Source: a virus. Taken from it: a stretch of 64,000 nt of DNA. Both the position numbers and the translations under genes were made by a program. The DNA is taken from the UHGV virus genome UHGV-1440165; one strand, given 5' to 3'. The notes beneath the pieces were generated by a model. It made no database searches, was not told where the DNA came from, and saw only the letters and a list, made by a program, of their open reading frames with translations. This document shows positions 6,522-18,090 of the stretch, piece by piece (positions within the stretch are counted from its first letter, which is position 1; every line of letters starts with the position of its first letter).

Positions 6522-6800
6522 TTACTTGCCGTTGGCAGCGTTCTTCAGACCTTCGCCCACTTTGAATTTCACAACGTTTTTCGCCGCGATCTGAATGGTC
6601 TGGCCGTTCAGAGGATTGCGACCTTCACGAGCTTCTTGTGCTTTAACTTCGAACGCGCCGAAGCCGACCAGCTGTACAGACGCGCCTGCAGCAACTGCAG
6701 TTTTAACGCCGTCGATAAAGGATGCCACTACTTTCTCCGCTTCGCCTTTGGTGATGTTCTGGGTCGAAGCAATGTGGGCAACAAATTCAGTACGATTCAT
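6522..6800 (-). CDS. HU/IHF-family histone-like DNA-binding protein
   Basis: Strong HU-like sequence (VQLVGFGAFEV...REGRNPLNGQTIQIAAKNV). ATG at 6800 (MNRTEF...) with GGAGA RBS; track start 6842 is an upstream extension. Confidence 0.85.
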   Translation of the reverse strand: MNRTEFVAHIASTQNITKGEAEKVVASFIDGVKTAVAAGASVQLVGFGAFEVKAQEAREGRNPLNGQTIQIAAKNVVKFKVGEGLKNAANGK

Positions 6801-6894
6801 CTGGATTTCTCCGTTTGGGTTAATGTTTACTTTCATGTTCACTACAAGAGGACTACAGCTTACCTAACAAAACATATTGAATAAAGCGAAATTA

Positions 6895-7143
6895 TTAGTT
6901 TTCCGCCATGACTTCATTCGTCATCGTTCCCCTGCACCTACAGTGTTCACAGACCACGGCAACGCAAGGCTTAAACTTCTGAACACTGGCGACGGGGACA
7001 TTCACCGCATTTGGAAAAACTGGAATCTCTCTGGCTTCAATCCGTTGCTCAGAGAGACGGTCTTCATCCAAGAAGGTGACTGTCTTGTGCGGACAACGCA
7101 TTGACGCTTCACCTTCCCAGGTGATTACTGTGTTTGAGGTCAT
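6895..7143 (-). CDS. Small Cys-rich protein (possible zinc ribbon)
   Basis: 82 aa, ATG start; CPH...C...CEHCRC cysteine pattern. Confidence 0.4.
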   Translation of the reverse strand: MTSNTVITWEGEASMRCPHKTVTFLDEDRLSEQRIEAREIPVFPNAVNVPVASVQKFKPCVAVVCEHCRCRGTMTNEVMAEN

Positions 7144-7427
7144 GATTCTACCTCCGATTTGGAGATGAATGATTCCATGTCTGACCGGGAAATAATCGTT
7201 TCTACACGATCTTCATCGATCAACATTTCGTTCAGAAGGTCATAGCCCAGCACTTGCACACCACGAACACCCCAAGACCTTTTCTTCAGCTCTGCCTCAA
7301 TACTCAGAACTCTCTGAACCGTTAGACCGCCGGAAGAGAATGGAACCGGATAGAAGGTGGAGCACATTTGCGCGCTGCCATTTAATCTATAGCGAACCAG
7401 CAGAACATCACACCATACACCAGCCAT
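7140..7427 (-). CDS. Hypothetical protein
   Basis: 95 aa ORF, ATG start; overlaps neighbours by 4 nt in operon style. Confidence 0.4.
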   Translation of the reverse strand: MAGVWCDVLLVRYRLNGSAQMCSTFYPVPFSSGGLTVQRVLSIEAELKKRSWGVRGVQVLGYDLLNEMLIDEDRVETIISRSDMESFISKSEVES

Positions 7428-7428
7428 G

Positions 7429-8091
7429 TTACACCTCCACCGCGTGGGACTTCAGGAGTTCGTCAATCGCTTTCTGTCCCATGTAGGAGAACGGGGTGCG
7501 CTGGTAGAACGCCCACAGTACCAGCTGAACAACGGCACGGGAACGGGTTTCAGCCGTCATCACCAGGTCACTGAAATGAGGAGACTCGGCTGTCCATTGG
7601 ATCACTTCGCCGAAGTCCTGATTGCAAGTCACAGAGATGCGGAACTTGTTGCACAGATCGTCGACTTCTTTGTAGGCATCGGTGGACACTCGGAGTTGTT
7701 CCGCATGCATCCAAGGGGTTGTGACGATCCTTTCACCCAATGTCTTGTCCGAAATGAACCATTCGACCGTTTTGTCAGATTTGGAGAATCCGTTGATGCG
7801 GTAGATACCGCCTTGTGACTCCATACTGCGCATGGCGTGATAGCGAGCATCGATTTCGTTGTTATGCATGGCATTGAAGTCAATGAACACGCGCCGCGCC
7901 AACACATCGTCCTCCGGCTGAAGAGCCAGGAAATCGTTCAGGCGGCTATAATGGAGGACATTGGAACCGTCGTGGCCATGTGTGCAATATGCGTAATAGC
8001 TGCCGATACGGGCGTGGGCAACATAAGACAACGGGGCGAAGAATAATCCGTCAGGATCAGGTCCGACGATGATAGAATAAAGTTTTTCCAT
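7429..8091 (-). CDS. Hypothetical protein
   Basis: First ATG at 8091 (MEKLYSII...); track start 8106 is a TTG codon. Upstream GC hairpin plus TTTCATTTGAGAGACTATATC leader. Confidence 0.5.
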   Translation of the reverse strand: MEKLYSIIVGPDPDGLFFAPLSYVAHARIGSYYAYCTHGHDGSNVLHYSRLNDFLALQPEDDVLARRVFIDFNAMHNNEIDARYHAMRSMESQGGIYRINGFSKSDKTVEWFISDKTLGERIVTTPWMHAEQLRVSTDAYKEVDDLCNKFRISVTCNQDFGEVIQWTAESPHFSDLVMTAETRSRAVVQLVLWAFYQRTPFSYMGQKAIDELLKSHAVEV

Positions 8092-8146
8092 GATATAGTC
8101 TCTCAAATGAAAGGCGGCCTTATGATAAGCCGCCCGAGATTATTGA

Positions 8147-9061
8147 TTATTGGAAATCGCCAACATACATGTTCAGCTTGTCATCCCACTCCACGACGAC
8201 GCGGATCGTTCCGGAATCTTCAGGGAAGGTCAGCTTAGAGCACATGGCGCGGTTGACATAAGTCCCGCTCTGGTTGACGTTGTAGTCCTTCCCAGCACAG
8301 ACACCGAAACGTTTGAAGTCACGGGTCACCATCATGTTCAGAGTTGTCCAAGGGAGTGCATCGCGCAGGGCTTTACACAGGATGATCTTTCCATCCGGTC
8401 TGAAGGAGACAAACATCTCATTGGCAACCCGGCGGCGAGCAGGCGGTTCAAGTTCGCGCAGGGAGATGAATTCAGAGGGATCATCCAAGGCACCCAAGGC
8501 ACCCAGGGCGACCATGTCTTCGCGAACTTTACTGACAACTTCAGTTACTGCGGACACGACTTCAACAGCCGGATTCGCCTTAAATGGTTCAACAGTCTTG
8601 GACATCTTGGATACAGACATCCCATCACCCTTGCGCTTCTCCGCATATTGCTCGACGGACTTGTCGCTCACCGGAGGCAGTTTGGTGGCAGGGGTTATAA
8701 CCGGGCTTGCATCTGGTTTCGACTTCGGGGTGCTACGAGCCAGGCGAAGATTTTCTTGGGCTTGCAGAATACGCTCTTGTCGTGTCTGTGGAGCCTTTGG
8801 TGAGATCTTCGTACTGAAGTCAGAAACACCGACCCAGTCACCCTGGTCATTGCGCTTGGCAACCAATGTCAGTTTGTGGATGATGCCCTGCAGCTTGCTT
8901 TCACGCAAATTGTCGGCATACCAGAACCTGGCGCCCATCTCGAACTTCTCGGCGAAGATGACACGAGCGTCTTCATGTACGAGCATCACTCGAGCCGCGT
9001 TGGGAGCGAACGTTTTGTTCTTTTCAATGATCGCCGCAGCGATAGTTTTCGTCAGGAGCAT
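8147..9061 (-). CDS. Hypothetical protein with low-complexity linker
   Basis: About 304 aa; ATG at 9061; central P/S/K-rich linker between two domains. Confidence 0.5.
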   Translation of the reverse strand: MLLTKTIAAAIIEKNKTFAPNAARVMLVHEDARVIFAEKFEMGARFWYADNLRESKLQGIIHKLTLVAKRNDQGDWVGVSDFSTKISPKAPQTRQERILQAQENLRLARSTPKSKPDASPVITPATKLPPVSDKSVEQYAEKRKGDGMSVSKMSKTVEPFKANPAVEVVSAVTEVVSKVREDMVALGALGALDDPSEFISLRELEPPARRRVANEMFVSFRPDGKIILCKALRDALPWTTLNMMVTRDFKRFGVCAGKDYNVNQSGTYVNRAMCSKLTFPEDSGTIRVVVEWDDKLNMYVGDFQ

Positions 9062-9111
9062 CACGATGTATTCCTATCGGTTCAATTGGAGGTTAAATTT
9101 TACCCTGAAAT

Positions 9112-9444
9112 CTATTTTGAAACGCCGACAAAGTCCTGGGCAATTCCCCGACAATACATCAGGTCGGTCTTCGTTTGTGGGCTGTTTTCTGCCGCCGACA
9201 TCATCATTGGCAGGTCCAGCGCATTCTCTATCTGGTCAACGCTGAACAGGTCAAGGCGCTTCAGCTCTCCCTCGAAGTCGGACAGGAGAATAGACGTGTC
9301 TTTGTCGTCCGGATGGAATTGCTGATACGTCTCCATCCAGGCAGCGCATGTATTCAGTTTGGACGGCGGGGCGGCATGTACCCCGCCGATATAGGCAACC
9401 ACGACAGCCAGGATTAACAAGAGGATGATTTTACGAGTCATCAT
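9112..9444 (-). CDS. Small secreted or membrane-anchored protein
   Basis: 110 aa; N-terminal MMTRKIILLLILAVVVAYIGGVHA reads as a signal peptide or signal anchor. Confidence 0.5.
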   Translation of the reverse strand: MMTRKIILLLILAVVVAYIGGVHAAPPSKLNTCAAWMETYQQFHPDDKDTSILLSDFEGELKRLDLFSVDQIENALDLPMMMSAAENSPQTKTDLMYCRGIAQDFVGVSK

Positions 9445-10127
9445 TCGTTCTCCTTCATCATGTTATCACAGTCGACACGAGTCTGTTGCAGCTCACGCGA
9501 CATACGAGGATCGTCGAGGTTCACACTCAGATTCGTGGCCAGATCTTTCAGGCCGTTCTGAACACGATCCTCATAATAGTGGTCGTTCTCAACCAGCCAG
9601 GCTCTGAGGCCAAGAGCGCGGGTACGCCATTGTTTCTTCAGAACACGGTCGGTTGTTTGTTCGGCACTGTACTCAAAGACCTTGATGCACTGGTTGCCAT
9701 CGTCGATAAGGTTCAGGTGACGGCGGCCAATCTGCACACCCTTCTGTAATGCCGGAGAAGGGAGCGAACGGCACTGTCTGACGGTCATGCGTCCTTGGGT
9801 GCCCATACGCCCAGTCATGATCAGATCGCTGGCCTCCATGCCTCCACGGTTAAATTCGTCGTCATTGAGGTAGCCCTTGAGGTTATAGGCTCCCTGTTTG
9901 TATCGGTTGAACTCAATCCCGGCATTGACAACAGCGGTGGAGACGTTGCCTGTGTTCCAGAGTTCAGCAAAGTTCTCTATGGATCCAGACTTATCGATTG
10001 CGACTGCCTGGGAGAACCCAGCGCAGTAGGAAAGATCAGACCACAGTTTGTCACCTGTGGTGTTCAGCTTGGCAGCGGCAGGGAGTGCCAGACCTGCAAG
10101 CACAACCCCAAGGATTAAACGTTTCAT
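9441..10127 (-). CDS. Secreted protein (signal peptide)
   Basis: ATG at 10127 preceded by AAGGAG; MKRLILGVVLAGLALPAAA is a signal peptide; mature part contains Cys residues. Track start 10193 is an upstream extension. Confidence 0.55.
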   Translation of the reverse strand: MKRLILGVVLAGLALPAAAKLNTTGDKLWSDLSYCAGFSQAVAIDKSGSIENFAELWNTGNVSTAVVNAGIEFNRYKQGAYNLKGYLNDDEFNRGGMEASDLIMTGRMGTQGRMTVRQCRSLPSPALQKGVQIGRRHLNLIDDGNQCIKVFEYSAEQTTDRVLKKQWRTRALGLRAWLVENDHYYEDRVQNGLKDLATNLSVNLDDPRMSRELQQTRVDCDNMMKENE

Positions 10128-10211: not shown

Positions 10212-10661
10212 TTAGTACCGACTATCACTGACCGTCCGGTACTTCACACCCTTGAACTGCTTGGCAACCTTGACGAACTCCATCGCAGGCATGTCCACTT
10301 TGTAGACCTTGATGCGCTGACGGTCATCCATGTTCAGAGCAGCCACATAGCGGTGGGAGCCGTCGACCACATAGTTATCAGAAGACACCCAAACCCGACC
10401 CATGGGCTTCTTGTTTCTGATGTTCTTCATGATCTTCCAGACCTTCATCTTGTTGATTTCGTTCTGGGTGAGACGGAGCGATTTGATAGGAACCTGGCCA
10501 GCATCGATAGTGATGCCGAGTTCCTCCAGGTAGTCATGGAAGGCATCCTGTTTGTCATCGTCGATTTGTGGCATAGAAGAACGCGAAAGCCCGAGGTTTC
10601 CAACAGGAATCCTCAGGCCGTTGATAATGTTCAACCAGTCTATGAAGGAAGACATGAACAT
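10212..10661 (-). CDS. ParB-like nuclease domain protein (putative)
   Basis: Contains VVDGSHRYVAAL, resembling the ParB/sulfiredoxin-fold DGxHR motif; ATG at 10661 with GAGGTGA RBS (track start is GTG at 10670). Confidence 0.4.
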   Translation of the reverse strand: MFMSSFIDWLNIINGLRIPVGNLGLSRSSMPQIDDDKQDAFHDYLEELGITIDAGQVPIKSLRLTQNEINKMKVWKIMKNIRNKKPMGRVWVSSDNYVVDGSHRYVAALNMDDRQRIKVYKVDMPAMEFVKVAKQFKGVKYRTVSDSRY

Positions 10662-10804
10662 GAGATTCACCTCGGGATATGAATTATCCCTTAGTTAGTC
10701 GTGAAATGTCTTGGCGAGAAACCTCCCGACATATTCACAAAAGGCAATGATCACTAAACCCAATCCGCAACCAATAAGCCAACCCCAAAATTCAATGTCC
10801 ACCA

Positions 10805-11092
10805 TCACACCTCGTCTTCTTCAGGTCCACCGTCAATCAGGATACGAGCGGTGTCGAAAGTTTCCCCGCCCGTGTTCAGCAGCTTGGTCAGATCGTCAAG
10901 ATATCGGACCGTGCCAAGATCAGATGACCGCGTTATAAATTCCAGCATACCATACAGGGCTGATTTGAATCGGCTGTTGTCGATATCGTTCTTGATTTCC
11001 ATCAGGCGCAAGATGTTCTCTGACTGAGTATGGCCAACACACGCCTTGTCTCTGATCATCTCCTTGATAGAACTTCTCTCTGTTGGTGTCAT
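10805..11092 (-). CDS. Hypothetical protein
   Basis: 95 aa ORF, ATG start. Confidence 0.4.
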   Translation of the reverse strand: MTPTERSSIKEMIRDKACVGHTQSENILRLMEIKNDIDNSRFKSALYGMLEFITRSSDLGTVRYLDDLTKLLNTGGETFDTARILIDGGPEEDEV

Positions 11093-11518: not shown

Positions 11519-12025
11519 TTATAGGGTAACAAGTGATACGGTAAAAACCATCGTCCCGTCAGTTGCCATTTTTCTTGAAACTGGTATGACGCGAGGCTGG
11601 CAGAATATCCATTCTTTCTCCATGGACGCCAAGTCCAGCATATCCATTTCTGATTCATCGCCTTTGTTCACAAATTTTTCTAGAGAACCATAGACATTAA
11701 GCCCCTCCGGGAGTCCGTTTCGATGTTTGTAACATATGCGGGCGACAGCTCTGGTTCCATACGATTTAGAAAATTGTTTGGCCACATGCTTCAGTTCACT
11801 GAAGCTAAGACAAGAATCCCATGTCTGAAACATGTCTCCTCGTTCAAACATCATCTCCAAACGCGCAACGTCCTCTTTAGGCAACCCGCGATAAAGTGTG
11901 GTCATCTGCGGTTCGCGTAATTCTCGCACCAGACCACGGATGGCAGGGGAAACAGTGCCAGGGCGCATGATGTGGGACTTATCATGGACGAGGTAAAATA
12001 AATCTTGAATTTGTTGATCGGTCAT
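11519..12025 (-). CDS. Hypothetical protein; possible ADP-ribosyltransferase-like
   Basis: 168 aa; ATG with GAAGGA RBS; candidate R / S-x-S / E-x-E triad (LYRG, DSCLSFS, EKE) is suggestive only. Confidence 0.35.
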   Translation of the reverse strand: MTDQQIQDLFYLVHDKSHIMRPGTVSPAIRGLVRELREPQMTTLYRGLPKEDVARLEMMFERGDMFQTWDSCLSFSELKHVAKQFSKSYGTRAVARICYKHRNGLPEGLNVYGSLEKFVNKGDESEMDMLDLASMEKEWIFCQPRVIPVSRKMATDGTMVFTVSLVTL

Positions 12026-12802: not shown

Positions 12803-13126
12803 TTATTTGCGCAGGGCAACCACGAATTCAGCGAGTTCACCCATGGTCGGGTCATCGCCTTTACTGCCCAGCCAGCCGTCGTCTATTTCGACCTGAAACT
12901 CTTCTTCTAGTTCCATTACGATTTCGATAGCATCCAGTTCATCGCCGCCGAGGTCTTTCTTGGTGCGGAGGCCAGCCAGTTTGTCCAGGGCGTCTTCGTT
13001 TTGAGATGCCACGTCGTCCAGCAGTTTGCGCTTGTCATCGTCGCGCCACAGATCCATATTCAGATTCTCTGTAGCGTACTGAGCCAGGTGTCGCATCACC
13101 TCAACATATGTCGGTTTACTGCTCAT
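12803..13126 (-). CDS. Acyl carrier protein-like protein lacking the phosphopantetheine-attachment serine
   Basis: 107 aa; DLGGDELDAIEIVMELEEEFQVEIDD closely matches the ACP helix-II region [20 protein letters not shown], but the DSL serine codon is GAA (Glu); ATG with GGAGA RBS. Confidence 0.6.
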   Translation of the reverse strand: MSSKPTYVEVMRHLAQYATENLNMDLWRDDDKRKLLDDVASQNEDALDKLAGLRTKKDLGGDELDAIEIVMELEEEFQVEIDDGWLGSKGDDPTMGELAEFVVALRK

Positions 13127-13168: not shown

Positions 13169-15370
13169 TTAGATTTTGATCTCTTTCTCTGCCAGTTCGG
13201 CAGTGACCTTGTACTTCACGCCATCCACTTCAACTTCCATGGTTGACTCTTCCAGGTCGAGGTCGGTGAACCAGCCATGGCCAGCAACGATACCATACAC
13301 CACTTTAGACAGCGTCTTGTTCAGGGCGCGGACTTCAGTGATGGCCGCCTTGGCAGCAGCGTCGATCCAGTTTTCGATCAGCTGTTTCTGTACGGCTTCA
13401 GGCACAGCAGTAATAGCCGGGGACTTCACGAATGCGTCGTATTCTTTCAGTGCATTGGCGATGAACATATCACCCGCATTGAGAGCCTTTTTATCAGCAA
13501 TCTTCTTCTGTACCGCAGCGATGGACGGCAGAGAAGACGCCCCGGCGATCTTAACGTTCAGCTCACGGCTCATGTAGACGTCCGTGGAGTCCTTCAGCTC
13601 GGTCTTCGGTGAGAAGCCATAATCGCGGATACCAACACTAGACAGGTATTCTGCGGCCGCAGCGCCGTACTGAATAGCCAGACCTTTGGCATTACCCTTA
13701 CCAACCAGGGCGTCGCGATAGAACTTCAGTACCTTCTGCTTGCCTTTCAGGGCTTCCAGGCGAACGTTGTCGGCAAAGAACTGTGCAGCACTGATGTTCT
13801 TGACCATCGCACGGTTGACCAGCGGTACGCTTTCCAGGTTCAGAATGAACACTTCCGGACCAACGAACACGTGGACGCCCATTTCGATCAACTTCTGCAC
13901 AACTTCGATATCAGCCTTGAACGGCAGGGTCTTCACATTGATGATGCCGTCTTTGACGATGGTGTAGTTGCGCCACTGGAATGTGTCCAATTCTTCGGGT
14001 AGACCGAACTTCTTCTGAGCGAATTCGGGCACCGCCACAGTTCCATGCTGGATTGTACGCACACTGATGTTCGGGCGCTCAGAGTTATAGACCAGGTCGC
14101 TGATTGAGATCACGCCCAGATCGTTAGCAGGTTCAAACGACGGTGTCCACTCTTCGTGCTCAGCCAGCTTGAGAGCGAGGGCTTTACGCTCTTCTTTGGA
14201 CTTGGCGTTCGCGATTTCTTCCGCCAGCTTGTCTTCGGTATCATCGGCTTTCTGCACAGTACCGCGACCAATGCTCTTGTAGGAGAACATCGGGTGCTTG
14301 GTGGCAACAGACACGCCAGCTTCGGCCAGGTACGTCAGCACATCAACGACAGTGGTCGCATCTTCAGCCGGAACCATATTGTAGTCGATACCGTCCACGC
14401 CGCGCAGCTGATCATCAACGATGGCCTGGGTCAGATCAACTTTGATGTTGGAGTAGTCCTGCTTGGTGAAGCAGTTGCTGTACTGTTTGATGAAGCGGAC
14501 GTCGCCCGTTTTCTTCAGCGCAGCCCACACCAGGTCGGCGTCCATGATGTGTACGCCGTAGAACGCCAGCACGTATGCTGCCTGGATGTCCGTCAGCGCA
14601 TCAAGCTGGTCGATCATGTTAGGGTTGACGACCCACAGCTTCGTGACGCTCTCAGGGATGCTCACGTGGCCGATAGGATGGTCTTCATCCGGCTGTACCG
14701 CCAGCACGGTTGCTACGCCGTTTTCAACGTAGATGGCGTGAGTGTACACCACAGGAACGTCAACACGAACCTTCGGCACCGAGGACTTCAACACGTTTTC
14801 CAGCTCAGTCTGATATTCAGTCTGTCCTTCGGCGAACACGTGAGTCGCGCCGGAACGCTCGGACATCTGGGCCAGGAGTTCGCGGTTACAGTACCAGCCG
14901 TATTCGATAAAGGTGATGTTATCGAAAACAAATGGCAAGGTTTCGGCGACGGCCAGGATTTCATTGGAGCGCCAGCAGTTGTCATAACCATCGGTCATGA
15001 ACGCCAGGTTGTTGACGTAGCCGGGTTTCTTCAGGCTACGCGCAGTATCTACCGCGAGACCCAGGGGTTCGACGAAGCCAGTGCAACCGGATGGTTGCAG
15101 GAAGCGGTCGATCAGTTTGTTCAGCTCGCTCAGGTCAGACGCAGCACTGACCTGGCGGCCAGCGAACACAGTACCAAAGTCGCCACGGGATGAGAAGTAC
15201 AGGAGGCTCACTGTGTCTTCCGGTTTCACCAGGGAAGGCAGGTTCTCCTTCAGGTGCTTACGGACTTCAGGGAGCGCCCGGTACATGGAACCGGAAATGT
15301 CCACAACGATTACATGGTTGGACGGGGCAGCAGTCGCAACCGCATTCTTAAACTCCAGGGATTCAATCAT
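13169..15370 (-). CDS. von Willebrand factor A (vWA) domain protein
   Basis: MIDAS-type motif VVDISGSM near the N-terminus and later TDGYDN; about 733 aa from ATG at 15370 (MIESLEF...). Track start 15433 overlaps a small upstream ORF. Confidence 0.65.
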   Translation of the reverse strand: MIESLEFKNAVATAAPSNHVIVVDISGSMYRALPEVRKHLKENLPSLVKPEDTVSLLYFSSRGDFGTVFAGRQVSAASDLSELNKLIDRFLQPSGCTGFVEPLGLAVDTARSLKKPGYVNNLAFMTDGYDNCWRSNEILAVAETLPFVFDNITFIEYGWYCNRELLAQMSERSGATHVFAEGQTEYQTELENVLKSSVPKVRVDVPVVYTHAIYVENGVATVLAVQPDEDHPIGHVSIPESVTKLWVVNPNMIDQLDALTDIQAAYVLAFYGVHIMDADLVWAALKKTGDVRFIKQYSNCFTKQDYSNIKVDLTQAIVDDQLRGVDGIDYNMVPAEDATTVVDVLTYLAEAGVSVATKHPMFSYKSIGRGTVQKADDTEDKLAEEIANAKSKEERKALALKLAEHEEWTPSFEPANDLGVISISDLVYNSERPNISVRTIQHGTVAVPEFAQKKFGLPEELDTFQWRNYTIVKDGIINVKTLPFKADIEVVQKLIEMGVHVFVGPEVFILNLESVPLVNRAMVKNISAAQFFADNVRLEALKGKQKVLKFYRDALVGKGNAKGLAIQYGAAAAEYLSSVGIRDYGFSPKTELKDSTDVYMSRELNVKIAGASSLPSIAAVQKKIADKKALNAGDMFIANALKEYDAFVKSPAITAVPEAVQKQLIENWIDAAAKAAITEVRALNKTLSKVVYGIVAGHGWFTDLDLEESTMEVEVDGVKYKVTAELAEKEIKI

Positions 15371-15533
15371 CGTTATTGCCTTCTTCAGGGTTGTCATCGG
15401 CCTCACCTTCCGGATTGACCAGCATGTGTTCAACGAATTCGCGATTCAGCTCAATCTGGCTCATCAGCGCATCCGTCGGAGTAAAGCGGCGGTCGAGGTT
15501 ATCGACACCCGCACGTTTAAATGGTTTGGACAT
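15363..15533 (-). CDS. Small hypothetical ORF (56 aa) between NAMPT-like and vWA genes
   Basis: ATG at 15533 with GAGG RBS; its TGA stop overlaps the vWA start (ATGATTGA); acidic C-terminus. Not in ORF track (under 60 aa). Confidence 0.4.
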   Translation of the reverse strand: MSKPFKRAGVDNLDRRFTPTDALMSQIELNREFVEHMLVNPEGEADDNPEEGNNDD

Positions 15534-15574: not shown

Positions 15575-17239
15575 TTAGATTTGTGAGGCCAGTTCTGCCA
15601 CCAGAGGAGCAGCACGAACACGCGCATCTTCCAGAGTCTGAGTGTTGAAGAACTTGCCATCACGGTACACCAGTTGGTGTTGGTTGTCGGCGTCTTGCAC
15701 CTGATCAAAGGTGATGCCGTCAACCAACACTAGTTTACCCTGAGAGTCTTTAATGACTTTAAGGAAACCACGCGCAGACTTTTTAGTCCCGCCTTTGTCG
15801 GTCTTCGGCTCTTTGAAGATCTCGCGGAATTCACCGTTCACCTTACCAGCCGTCGCTTTCACTGCCGTTCCAGTACTGTCACGGGTGTTCATCTGGTAGG
15901 TGTAGGAACCAATACCGAAGACCACGTTAATGGAAGCGAAGTTCCGGCCAGCCAGACGACCAAAGATCTGGTCTTCACGTGCCAATGTGATAGAGTCACC
16001 GTAGATCAGACCGATGTGATCGTCCAACAGGAAGTGGCCAGTCTCAGTTTGAGTACCGCCAAAGATCTCCCACAGGCGCTGAATAGAGCCGACTGCTTCA
16101 GAACGGCTGATGATATTACTGTCGTCTGCCATCAGAGAGTTGATCGTACCTTCGCCTGTGATCAGGTGATAGGTGTTCGTCTCTTCGATGTGGATGACTT
16201 CGGTGCTGCTGGACACGCCGCTGATGTTCAGCATAGCGCGGTCTTTGAACCCCTCGATGCGGTAGCCGCCGACGATGTGAACTGGGTCGCCAGAGTCAGG
16301 GCGGATCACGACTTTGCCGTTGCGTGCCATGATAATGTCTTTCAGGCGAGGGAGATAGTCGTCGATGACCTGCCAATAGTCCCACGCATCCGACACAATG
16401 CTGACGATGCCATCAGGATACACGTCCTGCACCAGGCGACGGAAGGTTTCGAATTCTCCATTCTTCGTACCCATGCACATCACGGCGTGTTCGGTGGCTG
16501 CAACGGAGCCAGCAACGACATAGTCTTCATCGATATCCGCGCCGTAATACTCTTCAACGAAGTCCAGGGCAGGGTTGGTGTCAGTGCCTTTGAAGAACAC
16601 CAGATGGCCAGAACCGGAAGACGCCGCGTCATGCCATCCGCTCATACCACGGAAGGAGAAGTCGTGGCCTTGGTAATCGATGAACCAATGGTCCGGTGAC
16701 ACGCCTGTGGCGATAGCGGCTTTCACCATCAGTGCCTTGTAATGCAGGGCGATGGTGGCGTTCGTCATGGGCTTCCAGATCTCAGAGCTGAACACAGTCT
16801 CCAGATAGTTGGTCAGCCAGTAGAACTCCGGCAAGGTGTTGAACATCACATACACCGGAACGCCATACGGGCACATGGTGCCTTCGGGTAGAGCACGGAC
16901 TTCGATAGGCAGATAACCGAGGTCATGCAGGGCTTCGATATGCTCTGTGCCAACACGACCTGGACCCAGTACTTTGTTCATGCGACGGGCATACTTCTTC
17001 AACACCTTGGCCTTCGGGCGCTGGAAGAACGCTTCGTCAAACAGTTCGTGGAACCAGGTCATGAAACCCTGGATGCCCCAGACCACCACGCCGTTCTTCG
17101 GCAGGTGAGAGTTGAATAATTTGTTGGAACGCGGAGTCCCGTTGGAGAACACCAGCTCACTACCTTCAGGGAACTGATAGATGTGCCCTGATTTGTAGAA
17201 GTCGATTGCATGAATTGGGTCTAAGTGGCGCATGCTCAT
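15575..17239 (-). CDS. nadV: Nicotinamide phosphoribosyltransferase-family protein (NadV/NAMPT-like)
   Basis: 554 aa; NAMPT-type N-terminus with the DFYKSGH motif; ATG start overlaps the stop of the upstream Prs-like gene by 4 nt. Confidence 0.8.
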   Translation of the reverse strand: MSMRHLDPIHAIDFYKSGHIYQFPEGSELVFSNGTPRSNKLFNSHLPKNGVVVWGIQGFMTWFHELFDEAFFQRPKAKVLKKYARRMNKVLGPGRVGTEHIEALHDLGYLPIEVRALPEGTMCPYGVPVYVMFNTLPEFYWLTNYLETVFSSEIWKPMTNATIALHYKALMVKAAIATGVSPDHWFIDYQGHDFSFRGMSGWHDAASSGSGHLVFFKGTDTNPALDFVEEYYGADIDEDYVVAGSVAATEHAVMCMGTKNGEFETFRRLVQDVYPDGIVSIVSDAWDYWQVIDDYLPRLKDIIMARNGKVVIRPDSGDPVHIVGGYRIEGFKDRAMLNISGVSSSTEVIHIEETNTYHLITGEGTINSLMADDSNIISRSEAVGSIQRLWEIFGGTQTETGHFLLDDHIGLIYGDSITLAREDQIFGRLAGRNFASINVVFGIGSYTYQMNTRDSTGTAVKATAGKVNGEFREIFKEPKTDKGGTKKSARGFLKVIKDSQGKLVLVDGITFDQVQDADNQHQLVYRDGKFFNTQTLEDARVRAAPLVAELASQI

Positions 17240-18090
17240 TTTACACGTCCTGTATTTTCAGTTTTGAAAGGAAGACCGTCGGCGGTGATGTTCTCCCACC
17301 AGACAGTGTCGGCATACACAGCATCGTAGATCCCGTCGAAAACAGAGAGACCTTTGCTGAAGATGCCATGGGTAACGAAGAGCGTCATGTGCTTAGGCTT
17401 GTGCTTCTGAAGCTCTTTACCCAGCTCAACAAACGTGCGCCCACCGTCGCAGATATCATCAACCACAACCAGATAGCGGTCTTTGATCAGTTCAGGGTTT
17501 GTAATACTCACCCCAATGATTTCACCAGTCTTGGTGTCACGGTTCTTGTGTCCGTAGACAACAGGAACGCCATCCAATGACAGGCTGAGGGTTTCGGTCT
17601 TCTTCGCCGCGCCGCCGTCAGGGGCTACCAGCACAGCATTGTTCCCACGGATGAACCAGCCCAGATACTGGCGCACGATGTGATCTTGTGGGACCACATG
17701 GACGTTGTTGATCAGGGAAGACACAACATGGCTGTGAGGGTCTTTGATCGCCACGCGGTCAAAGTTCATGTTGTTGATGAACTCAGCCGCCCACTTCACG
17801 GACAGAGGCTCGCCGAAGTCGCAATGGCGGTCCTGGCGAGCATACGGGAAGTAAGGGATATACGCATGGAAGGTAGTCAGACGGTCCACGTTACCCAGGC
17901 CGCGCACGGCGTTTACCAGAAGCGCCAGCTCAATGAAGTCGGCTGATGATTTGATGTGAGCATCAATCACCACGTTCTGGACGTGACCGACAGGGATGCC
18001 AGCCTTTTGGATCTTGATATGTTCCTCACCACCTGGGAAGGTGAAGTGCTTGTAGAACACATCTTGGTCGTTCAATTTCAAACGAAACAT
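17236..18090 (-). CDS. Ribose-phosphate pyrophosphokinase-family protein (Prs-like)
   Basis: 284 aa; type I phosphoribosyltransferase/PRPP-binding motif VVVDDICDGGRT; ATG start with GAGG RBS. Confidence 0.75.
   Translation of the reverse strand: MFRLKLNDQDVFYKHFTFPGGEEHIKIQKAGIPVGHVQNVVIDAHIKSSADFIELALLVNAVRGLGNVDRLTTFHAYIPYFPYARQDRHCDFGEPLSVKWAAEFINNMNFDRVAIKDPHSHVVSSLINNVHVVPQDHIVRQYLGWFIRGNNAVLVAPDGGAAKKTETLSLSLDGVPVVYGHKNRDTKTGEIIGVSITNPELIKDRYLVVVDDICDGGRTFVELGKELQKHKPKHMTLFVTHGIFSKGLSVFDGIYDAVYADTVWWENITADGLPFKTENTGRVK

Follow-up and report, generated by a model that had tools for sequence, protein, structure and literature searches.

A stand-alone ParB/sulfiredoxin-fold protein of an Agtrevirus-like phage, probably virion-packaged and putatively nucleotide-using

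The ‘polyvalent’ proteins of phages have been argued to be packaged and then delivered at invasion (Iyer et al. 2017; PMC5512222). Among their modules is the DdrB-like ParB/sulfiredoxin (Srx) family, members of which are found solo or as parts of polyvalent proteins and are packaged in P1 heads, with nucleoside triphosphate (NTP) sensing or hydrolysis early in infection argued for ParB/Srx domains (PMC5512222). Considered here is one gene within a 64,000-nucleotide stretch (the window) of the UHGV virus genome UHGV-1440165, an Agtrevirus-like phage, i.e., a member of the Ackermannviridae. The product of that gene, a protein of 149 residues, is a stand-alone copy of a module which other phages carry in giant, packaged polyvalent proteins. 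Our favored reading, to which we assign a probability of roughly 0.5, is that it is a small, basic, single-domain virion protein, one delivered along with phage DNA and serving as an NTP-binding or -hydrolyzing enzyme or instead as a phosphotransfer enzyme.

It is structure that is decisive in placing this protein, with sequence libraries nearly silent. AlphaFold2, when given 18 orthologues, yields a model with a predicted local distance difference test (pLDDT) value of 83, and when given 70 diverse relatives yields one with a pLDDT of 93 and a predicted template modeling score (pTM) of 0.86, with secondary structure unchanged between the two. The top Foldseek matches to the Protein Data Bank (PDB), all at a probability of 1.0, are the pNOB8 ParB N-domain, human and plant sulfiredoxin, Noc, and M. 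xanthus ParB, and SbnI, SerK, Atu1540, PadC, and also KorB are matched as well. Going by these predicted structures, the protein is a member of the ParB/sulfiredoxin superfamily. The preliminary description of this DNA had proposed as much, from a DGxHR signature, and that proposal has held: a ParB/Srx fold is predicted, the motif is found at the structurally equivalent position, and the motif call was right as Foldseek, hhalign, and HMMER agree on ParB/Srx. The assignment is already public, via UniProt-derived names and one paper, and hence is not new. That is, several orthologues are named ‘ParB/Sulfiredoxin domain-containing protein’ in UniRef, with the same name found on BFVD entries.

The segment upon which the earlier call was based, VVDGSHRYVAAL, consists of residues 98-109 (positions 10335-10370) and includes the signature D100-G-S-H-R104. 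Among 70 diverse solo members of the family, R27, P31, Q32, Q66, D100, G101, and H103 are invariant, while conservation reaches at least 90% at M30, K73, D95, R104, and A107, and the pattern of conservation across 82 multi-domain members is like that of these solo members. With D100, G101, and H103 invariant and R104 at least 90% conserved over such diverse proteins, the motif match is, by this sequence criterion, not one that has arisen by chance. The family consensus is DGHHR, as seen in 110 of 163 domain copies, with DGSHR, which is the Ackermannviridae form, second commonest (21/163).

Sulfiredoxin residues K61, H100, and R101 hold the phosphates of ATP. Alignment by hhalign of the family profile with human sulfiredoxin (a query sequence identical to that of PDB 1yzs) pairs K73 with K61 and pairs the DGSHR signature with the Srx stretch which includes H100 and R101, and HMMER places DGSHR onto the DGHHR of free serine kinase. 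K73, H103, and R104 thereby are predicted, from sequence, to be nucleotide-pocket residues. The loop L64-E68, which follows the first strand of the core, is one that we take to match, by position, the ‘PHEQ’ segment around Glu30 of SerK as well as the NPxQPR box of ParB. The first 50 or so residues, by comparison, lie outside of the PDB ParB/Srx matches, the alignments of which span just 81-95 residues, and are covered instead by viral members of the family (TMq of 0.7-0.94 over 121-148 columns; BFVD).

Sequence libraries provide little to go on. A Pfam scan of the protein returned no family even at E-values of up to 10, an NCBIfam scan returned nothing meaningful, and a PADLOC scan with the protein as query returned no similarity. 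The ParBc-type profile hidden Markov models (HMMs) PF02195, PF08857, and PF18763, by which the preliminary description's naming of the domain might have been borne out, all are without a match to the protein, and PF02195 is absent as well among the Pfam families matched by the 18 orthologues. Searches of PDB sequences, using the single sequence and two profiles, gave noise or instead motif-only matches to SerK and 1vk1 (E of 0.6-1.3). PHROGs places the protein in phrog_2859 (4e-45), the function of which is unannotated, along with weak matches to ParB-like partition annotations (E of 1.6e-4 to 1.6e-2). The nearest Pfam model is ParBc_2 (PF08857), with several distant relatives scoring 20.8-22.6 bits against a gathering cutoff of 23.6, and with one orthologue scoring, below threshold, an E of 0.081.

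Membership in the Pfam ddrB-ParB family (PF18763) was considered and rejected: P1 DdrB matches that model at 2e-39, a match made neither by the window protein nor by any of its 82 multi-domain relatives. Membership in the DdrB-like family more generally fared no better, with an HMM search against DdrB yielding an E of 0.13 and hhalign, comparing the family profile with the DdrB N-terminus, yielding a probability of 0.1-0.3%, though that non-significant alignment nonetheless lines up an equivalent motif, ESGNGR in DdrB. As tests of DdrB-like membership fail and relatives miss PF08857 by 1-3 bits, the gene is, at the level of sequence comparison, a solo member of a sister family to the DdrB-like ParB family, one for which there is no curated model. 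When 1.84 billion cluster representatives were searched with a profile, 4,545 proteins were placed in this sister family at an E-value cutoff of 1e-3, with 1,609 of these passing a cutoff of 1e-10. The 150 best-scoring representatives consist of 68 solo proteins (no more than 200 residues) and 82 longer ones, 10 of which exceed 1,000 residues. Phages possessing the family include Ackermannviridae, PhiW-14, RSP15, ACP17, and Vibrio, Aeromonas T4-like, Stenotrophomonas, and Tenacibaculum phages, and the domain is found also within giant proteins of Ralstonia and Pseudomonas phages.

Two annotation matters were seen in passing. In Pseudomonas phage Itty13 (NC_070969), a ParB-like tblastn match falls within a 345-residue open reading frame (ORF) at 8493-9530 on the plus strand, opposite an annotated 970-residue coding sequence at 6703-9615 on the minus strand, and one of these two overlapping frames may be mis-called. 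In GenBank entries PQ306799, PP889490, and MH523359, orthologues go by ‘cytidyltransferase’ or ‘PLxRFG domain-containing protein’, names which look like errors of annotation transfer. The first of these probably stems from relatives in which a cytidylyltransferase-like domain is the fusion partner (as in 4 of 82 representatives; BFVD A0A6J5M804).

Ralstonia phage Eline gp53, annotated ‘DarB-like antirestriction’, is a giant protein encoded downstream of internal virion protein genes, and the 4,192 residues of it that were examined include SLT, the family domain (residues 1083-1201; E of 5e-31), an Eco57I-type methylase, helicase C, and LPD3. The protein P0145 combines a Mu portal, GNAT, the family domain, and a Zeta toxin kinase, and BFVD matches lie inside proteins of 900-1,290 residues. 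Tallying Pfam domains over the 82 multi-domain representatives yielded Zeta_toxin (7), AAA_33 (5), CTP_transf_like (4), RelA_SpoT (2), and PT-HINT (2), plus one each of Portal_Mu, PolyA_pol, ADPrib_exo_Tox, ART-PolyVal, Acb1, and GNAT. By the criterion of fusion, the family domain is a phage polyvalent-protein effector module in the sense of Iyer et al. (2017). The anti-restriction and DNA-modification context that the preliminary description had raised is in turn plausible only indirectly, i.e., by analogy with homologous domains in DarB-like polyvalent ejected proteins.

Evidence of packaging comes from orthologues. Mass spectrometry has detected these in LIMEstone-type Dickeya phages (96.6% protein identity) and in Sajous1 (84%), and the protein therefore is expressed. 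The LIMEstone1 orthologue, at 93.8% nucleotide identity, is described in GenBank as ‘unknown structural protein; confirmed structural protein’, and the virion association of an orthologue has been in print since 2012. Table 2 of the LIMEstone1 publication includes an unknown structural protein of 17.31 kDa, identified by 5 unique peptides at 35.6% coverage (PMC3296691). The label there is ORF 102, whereas computed masses are 17.30 kDa for GenBank ORF101 and 9.45 kDa for ORF102, and it is because the mass fits ORF101 rather than ORF102 that the entry is taken to be the ParB/Srx orthologue. All 12 of the LIMEstone1 unknown structural proteins have structural counterparts in phage ViI (PMC3296691). 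In Sajous1, gp192 yielded 11 spectra from cesium chloride-purified virions (PMC10892097), and gp192, as located in GenBank MW021757, matches the window protein at 84% identity along the full 149 residues. Virion proteome papers on phiD3 and on phiPD10.3/23.1 had no usable entry for the ParB/Srx protein. Packaging, that is, is known from LIMEstone1 and Sajous1 and would extend to the window phage by homology.

Orthologues being virion components, the protein would be on hand while particles are assembled. The preliminary description had placed the gene among ‘early’ genes, a claim that is unsupported, given the virion status of orthologues, and the gene shares its minus-strand cluster with that of a spanin. 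Scans for promoters do not otherwise help: TATAAATA, as a T4-type late promoter, has a single occurrence across the window, one that is away from the ParB/Srx gene, while scans for sigma-70 promoters and for terminators did no better with the window than with shuffled sequence. Because these scans are uninformative, the timing of expression is not readable from sequence, and a literature search for Ackermannviridae transcriptomics yielded nothing relevant.

Under the favored reading, of a virion-delivered, nucleotide-using protein, the gene product would be made during particle assembly, would be packaged (as shown for orthologues), and then would enter the cell together with the phage genome. 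There an NTP would be bound in a pocket consisting of Q66, K73, D95, and D100-G-x-H103-R104, along with, probably, the R27/Q32 loop, with the NTP-binding form probably a dimer. Two copies of the domain are found in 13 of the best 150 representatives, which fits with the dimeric, nucleotide-sandwiching mode of ParB N-domains. Phosphate would be hydrolyzed or transferred, with the protein either an enzyme acting on a nucleotide or other small substrate or, instead, an NTP-gated switch acting on nucleic acid. The outcome would be to aid the first minutes of takeover or counter-defense.

A number of points weigh against this reading. The chemistry of the family is a prediction, from sequence and model, and ejection into the host is presumed, while the placing of R27 and Q32 in the pocket is conjectural. 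The Ackermannviridae possess a serine where the family has a histidine (DGSHR versus DGHHR), which could alter activity. Neighboring genes are not conserved between distant phages, so that genomic context points to no partner or pathway. The Sajous1 spectral counts are modest, and the authors of that study caution that low counts may represent contamination (PMC10892097). At the N-terminus no T4-type capsid-targeting signal or protease site was recognized: the helix formed by residues 2-14 is conserved in Ackermannviridae, though not across the wider family, and no L/I-x-E site was seen nearby, as judged by eye.

Several other readings of the same protein may be entertained. The preliminary description had in mind a ParB-like nuclease. 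Such a protein would be a metal-dependent and largely sequence-nonspecific DNase or nickase, perhaps NTP-regulated, which would nick or degrade the DNA of hosts or rivals or instead would help to start phage replication. The ParB/Srx fold now seen, the protein's basic character (isoelectric point of 9.6), the conservation of acidic D95 and D100, and the nuclease or nicking activity reported for Osa, a ParB-methylase, and others (summarized in PMC5512222) all are in keeping with such a role. The conserved residues, however, are the nucleotide-phosphate-binding set common to the kinases SerK and SbnI and to Srx, and beyond the generic superfamily signature no nuclease-specific motif was found, ‘nuclease’ being the historical name of the domain. 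Fusion partners, too, mostly are enzymes that use nucleotides rather than DNA, Iyer et al. prefer NTP sensing or hydrolysis over DNase activity for the ParB domains of polyvalent proteins (PMC5512222), and a nonspecific DNase packed against its own phage's genome would require an inhibitor or gate. We view a DNase as unlikely, if still a serious contender. Somewhat less likely than that is a bolder version of nucleotide use, in which the protein is an injected, nucleotide-directed effector of a new kind, e.g., one phosphorylating or hydrolyzing a host immune signaling nucleotide, or an essential nucleotide pool, within the first seconds of infection. The family is a distinct, uncurated ParB/Srx branch, recognizable by its DGHHR, by its invariant Gln, and by an Arg/Pro-Gln loop near the N-terminus that is unique to it, and under this reading its recurring fusions with Zeta/AAA_33, cytidylyltransferase-like, RelA/SpoT, ART, and Acb1 domains would reflect one nucleotide-centered counter-defense function.

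PhiW-14 and the Ackermannviridae possess hypermodified thymidines in their DNA, and the family is found not just in the latter but also in PhiW-14, RSP15, and ACP17. The protein could be imagined as a cytoplasmic enzyme of nucleotide metabolism or DNA hypermodification, such as a SerK/SbnI-like kinase acting on a precursor or on 5-hydroxymethyldeoxyuridine (5-hmdU) in DNA, with its presence in virions adventitious. SerK and SbnI, both serine kinases, do indeed share the DGHHR consensus, co-purification of basic DNA-binding proteins with virions can occur, and in distant phages the gene is near that for dCMP deaminase (PhiW-14), for a MazG-like nucleotide pyrophosphohydrolase plus a 5'-3' deoxyribonucleotidase (RSP15), or for thymidine kinase (AS-sw). 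These three phages nevertheless have no neighbor in common, their shared feature being a loose proximity to nucleotide-metabolism genes, which may be coincidence in gene-dense large phages. Such absence of neighbor conservation counts against the idea, as does the family's presence across many unrelated phages, podoviruses and siphoviruses included, none of which ties it to a modification pathway. Homologous domains moreover are embedded in portal-fused and internal-virion giant proteins, and two independent virion proteomes contain the protein, with the 35.6% coverage in LIMEstone1 being greater than that of several genuine baseplate proteins tabulated alongside (PMC3296691). A cytoplasmic enzyme of this sort, adventitiously packaged, we deem improbable. 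More improbable again is a non-enzymatic, injected decoy or inhibitor that would heterodimerize with the NTPase domains of ParB-fold host defenses (type IV restriction enzymes of the GmrS/DUF262 type, which target modified DNA). Ackermannviridae DNA is hypermodified, ParB N-domains dimerize, and tandem copies do occur, as noted. Injected internal proteins of T-even phages inhibit GmrSD, the N-terminal domain of which is ParB-like (PMC12373910). Yet the invariant Q66, D100, G101, and H103, together with the conserved R104, point toward an active site rather than just a surface, and there was no PADLOC similarity. A partition role, i.e., as a centromere-binding ParB that forms a CTP-dependent DNA clamp, is scarcely credible. 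Its basis is structural matches to chromosomal ParB, Noc, and KorB plus the weak partition matches in PHROGs, and it is effectively refuted by domain content: the protein is a single domain of 149 residues lacking both a helix-turn-helix (HTH) and a C-terminal dimerization domain, has DGSHR in place of a GERRxRA box, and has no Pfam ParBc match. No ParA is annotated in the neighborhoods of orthologues, the protein is found in virions, and Ackermannviridae are virulent.

The value of the gene lies in its family, which consists of approximately 4,500 cluster representatives, is without a curated model, and repeatedly is packaged or fused to counter-defense enzymes. Were its chemistry solved, then the inventory of phage proteins that are delivered with DNA would lack one entry fewer, and the misleading names found in GenBank, i.e., ‘cytidyltransferase’, ‘PLxRFG domain-containing protein’, and ‘nuclease’, would be corrected as well.

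The ORF of the preliminary description, which had been given without strand, is a genuine gene and is found on the minus strand (Table 1). Its ATG is at 10661-10659 and its end, stop codon included, is at 10212. An alternative GTG lies upstream, at 10670, but is used as a start by no orthologue, all of these being 149 residues in length and beginning at the same Met. The 3.5 kb around the gene are 93% identical to Salmonella phage pSal-SNUABM-02, the copy of the gene in which is 100% identical to that of the window, and approximately 92% identical to Shigella phage MK-13. In another Shigella phage, ChubbyThor (OL615013), a putative homing endonuclease gene with a NUMOD3 motif is annotated beside or overlapping the orthologue region, suggesting a local mobile-element insertion in that genome.

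Table 1. Features of the ParB/Srx gene, its product, and adjacent genes, in window coordinates (aa, amino acids; nt, nucleotides; CDS, coding sequence; MS, mass spectrometry).
Feature	Position	Strand	Description	Basis
CDS of solo ParB/Srx-fold protein	10212..10661	minus	149 aa, 17.3 kDa, pI 9.6	ORF listing, sequence
Shine-Dalgarno GAGG	10670..10673	minus	8 nt 5' of ATG at 10661	sequence read directly
Family-specific N-terminal extension, residues 1-50	10512..10661	minus	helix 2-14, conserved loop, helix 35-47	deeper model, pLDDT 80-95
Conserved loop R27-S-S-M-P-Q32	10566..10583	minus	family consensus GNLGIxRxxMPQI	alignments of solo and multi-domain members
ParB/Srx core, residues 51-140	10242..10511	minus	b1 52-58, a1 71-82, b2 90-92, b3 97-100, a2 102-111, b4 116-122, a3 126-134	
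Loop L64-T-Q66-N-E68 after strand 1	10458..10472	minus	Q66 invariant	three alignments
D100-G-S-H-R104 signature	10350..10364	minus	b3/a2 junction	aligned to Srx G97-G-C99-H100-R101 and SerK DGHHR
36-aa hydrophobic peptide ORF, MVDIEFWGWLIGCGLGLVIIAFCEYVGRFLAKTFHD	10695-10805	minus	immediately upstream of ParB-like gene	
168-aa ART-like protein	11519-12025	minus		phrog_832 ‘RNA polymerase ADP-ribosylase’, 1e-14, C-terminal part of 1,480-column profile
Phage acyl carrier protein gene	12803-13126	minus	adjoins gene of 754-aa protein	
754-aa protein, phrog_2426	13169-15433	minus	orthologue of LIMEstone1 vWA-containing ORF108, MS-confirmed virion protein	

The gene sits within a tightly packed minus-strand cluster, the order of which is acyl carrier protein, a 79-residue protein, the ART-like protein, a 132-residue secreted protein, a 95-residue protein, the 36-residue transmembrane peptide, the ParB/Srx gene, a 228-residue secreted protein, and an Rz-like spanin. 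The ATG of the 36-residue ORF overlaps the TGA of the preceding, 95-residue ORF, and in a relative a ‘membrane protein’ is annotated here. The 168-residue protein is a solo ART-like domain found upstream of a solo ParB-like gene. LIMEstone1 and Sajous1 possess denV (pyrimidine-dimer glycosylase) in the slot of the ART-like gene, which thus looks like a swappable cassette. Further along, two minus-strand genes at 15575-17239 and 17236-18090 correspond, by position and size, to those for nicotinamide phosphoribosyltransferase and ribose-phosphate pyrophosphokinase in MK-13. By that analogy they would be an NAD+ salvage pair, located a few kb from the ART-like and ParB-like genes.

How, then, does the window protein compare with systems that are better known? 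With the internal proteins of phage T4 and with Alt it has in common being a small non-structural protein in the particle of a T4-related myovirus, presumably one delivered with DNA. It differs in having no relationship to these in sequence or fold and, as judged by eye, no recognizable capsid-targeting sequence or L/I-x-E site at its N-terminus, and its ejection is here presumed. With the ParB, Noc, and KorB CTPase clamps it shares the N-domain fold and a nucleotide-binding pocket at the b3/a2 junction, but it is virion-associated and is without the GERRxRA box, HTH, C-terminal domain, ParA partner, or parS site.

Closer in certain respects are sulfiredoxin and the serine kinases. Srx (PDB 1xw4, 3cyi, 6ky4) has its K61, H100, and R101 aligning with K73, H103, and R104, but in place of its catalytic Cys99 there is Ser102 here, with His the family's consensus residue, and the window protein is without a peroxiredoxin context and has an additional N-terminal extension. 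ParBc_2 proteins (PF08857, e.g., Atu1540, PDB 2hwj), SerK, and SbnI share the DGHHR-type signature along with a polar residue after strand 1 (TQ here). SerK and SbnI nonetheless have one more domain, at the C-terminus, possess a catalytic Glu at the position of the window family's invariant Gln, and are cellular metabolic enzymes rather than virion proteins. Finally, as with DdrB-like ParB (P1 DdrB, PF18763; PMC5512222), there is a ParB/Srx module that is found solo or within giant phage proteins, is virion-packaged, and is without ParA, and the partners overlap as well, i.e., kinases, ART, GNAT, RelA/SpoT, methylase-helicase, lysozyme, and portal/MuF. The two nevertheless are different sequence families, with ESGNGR in DdrB versus DG[HS]HR here, and the window family has, in addition, an N-terminal extension of its own, of approximately 50 residues, with invariant R, P, and Q.
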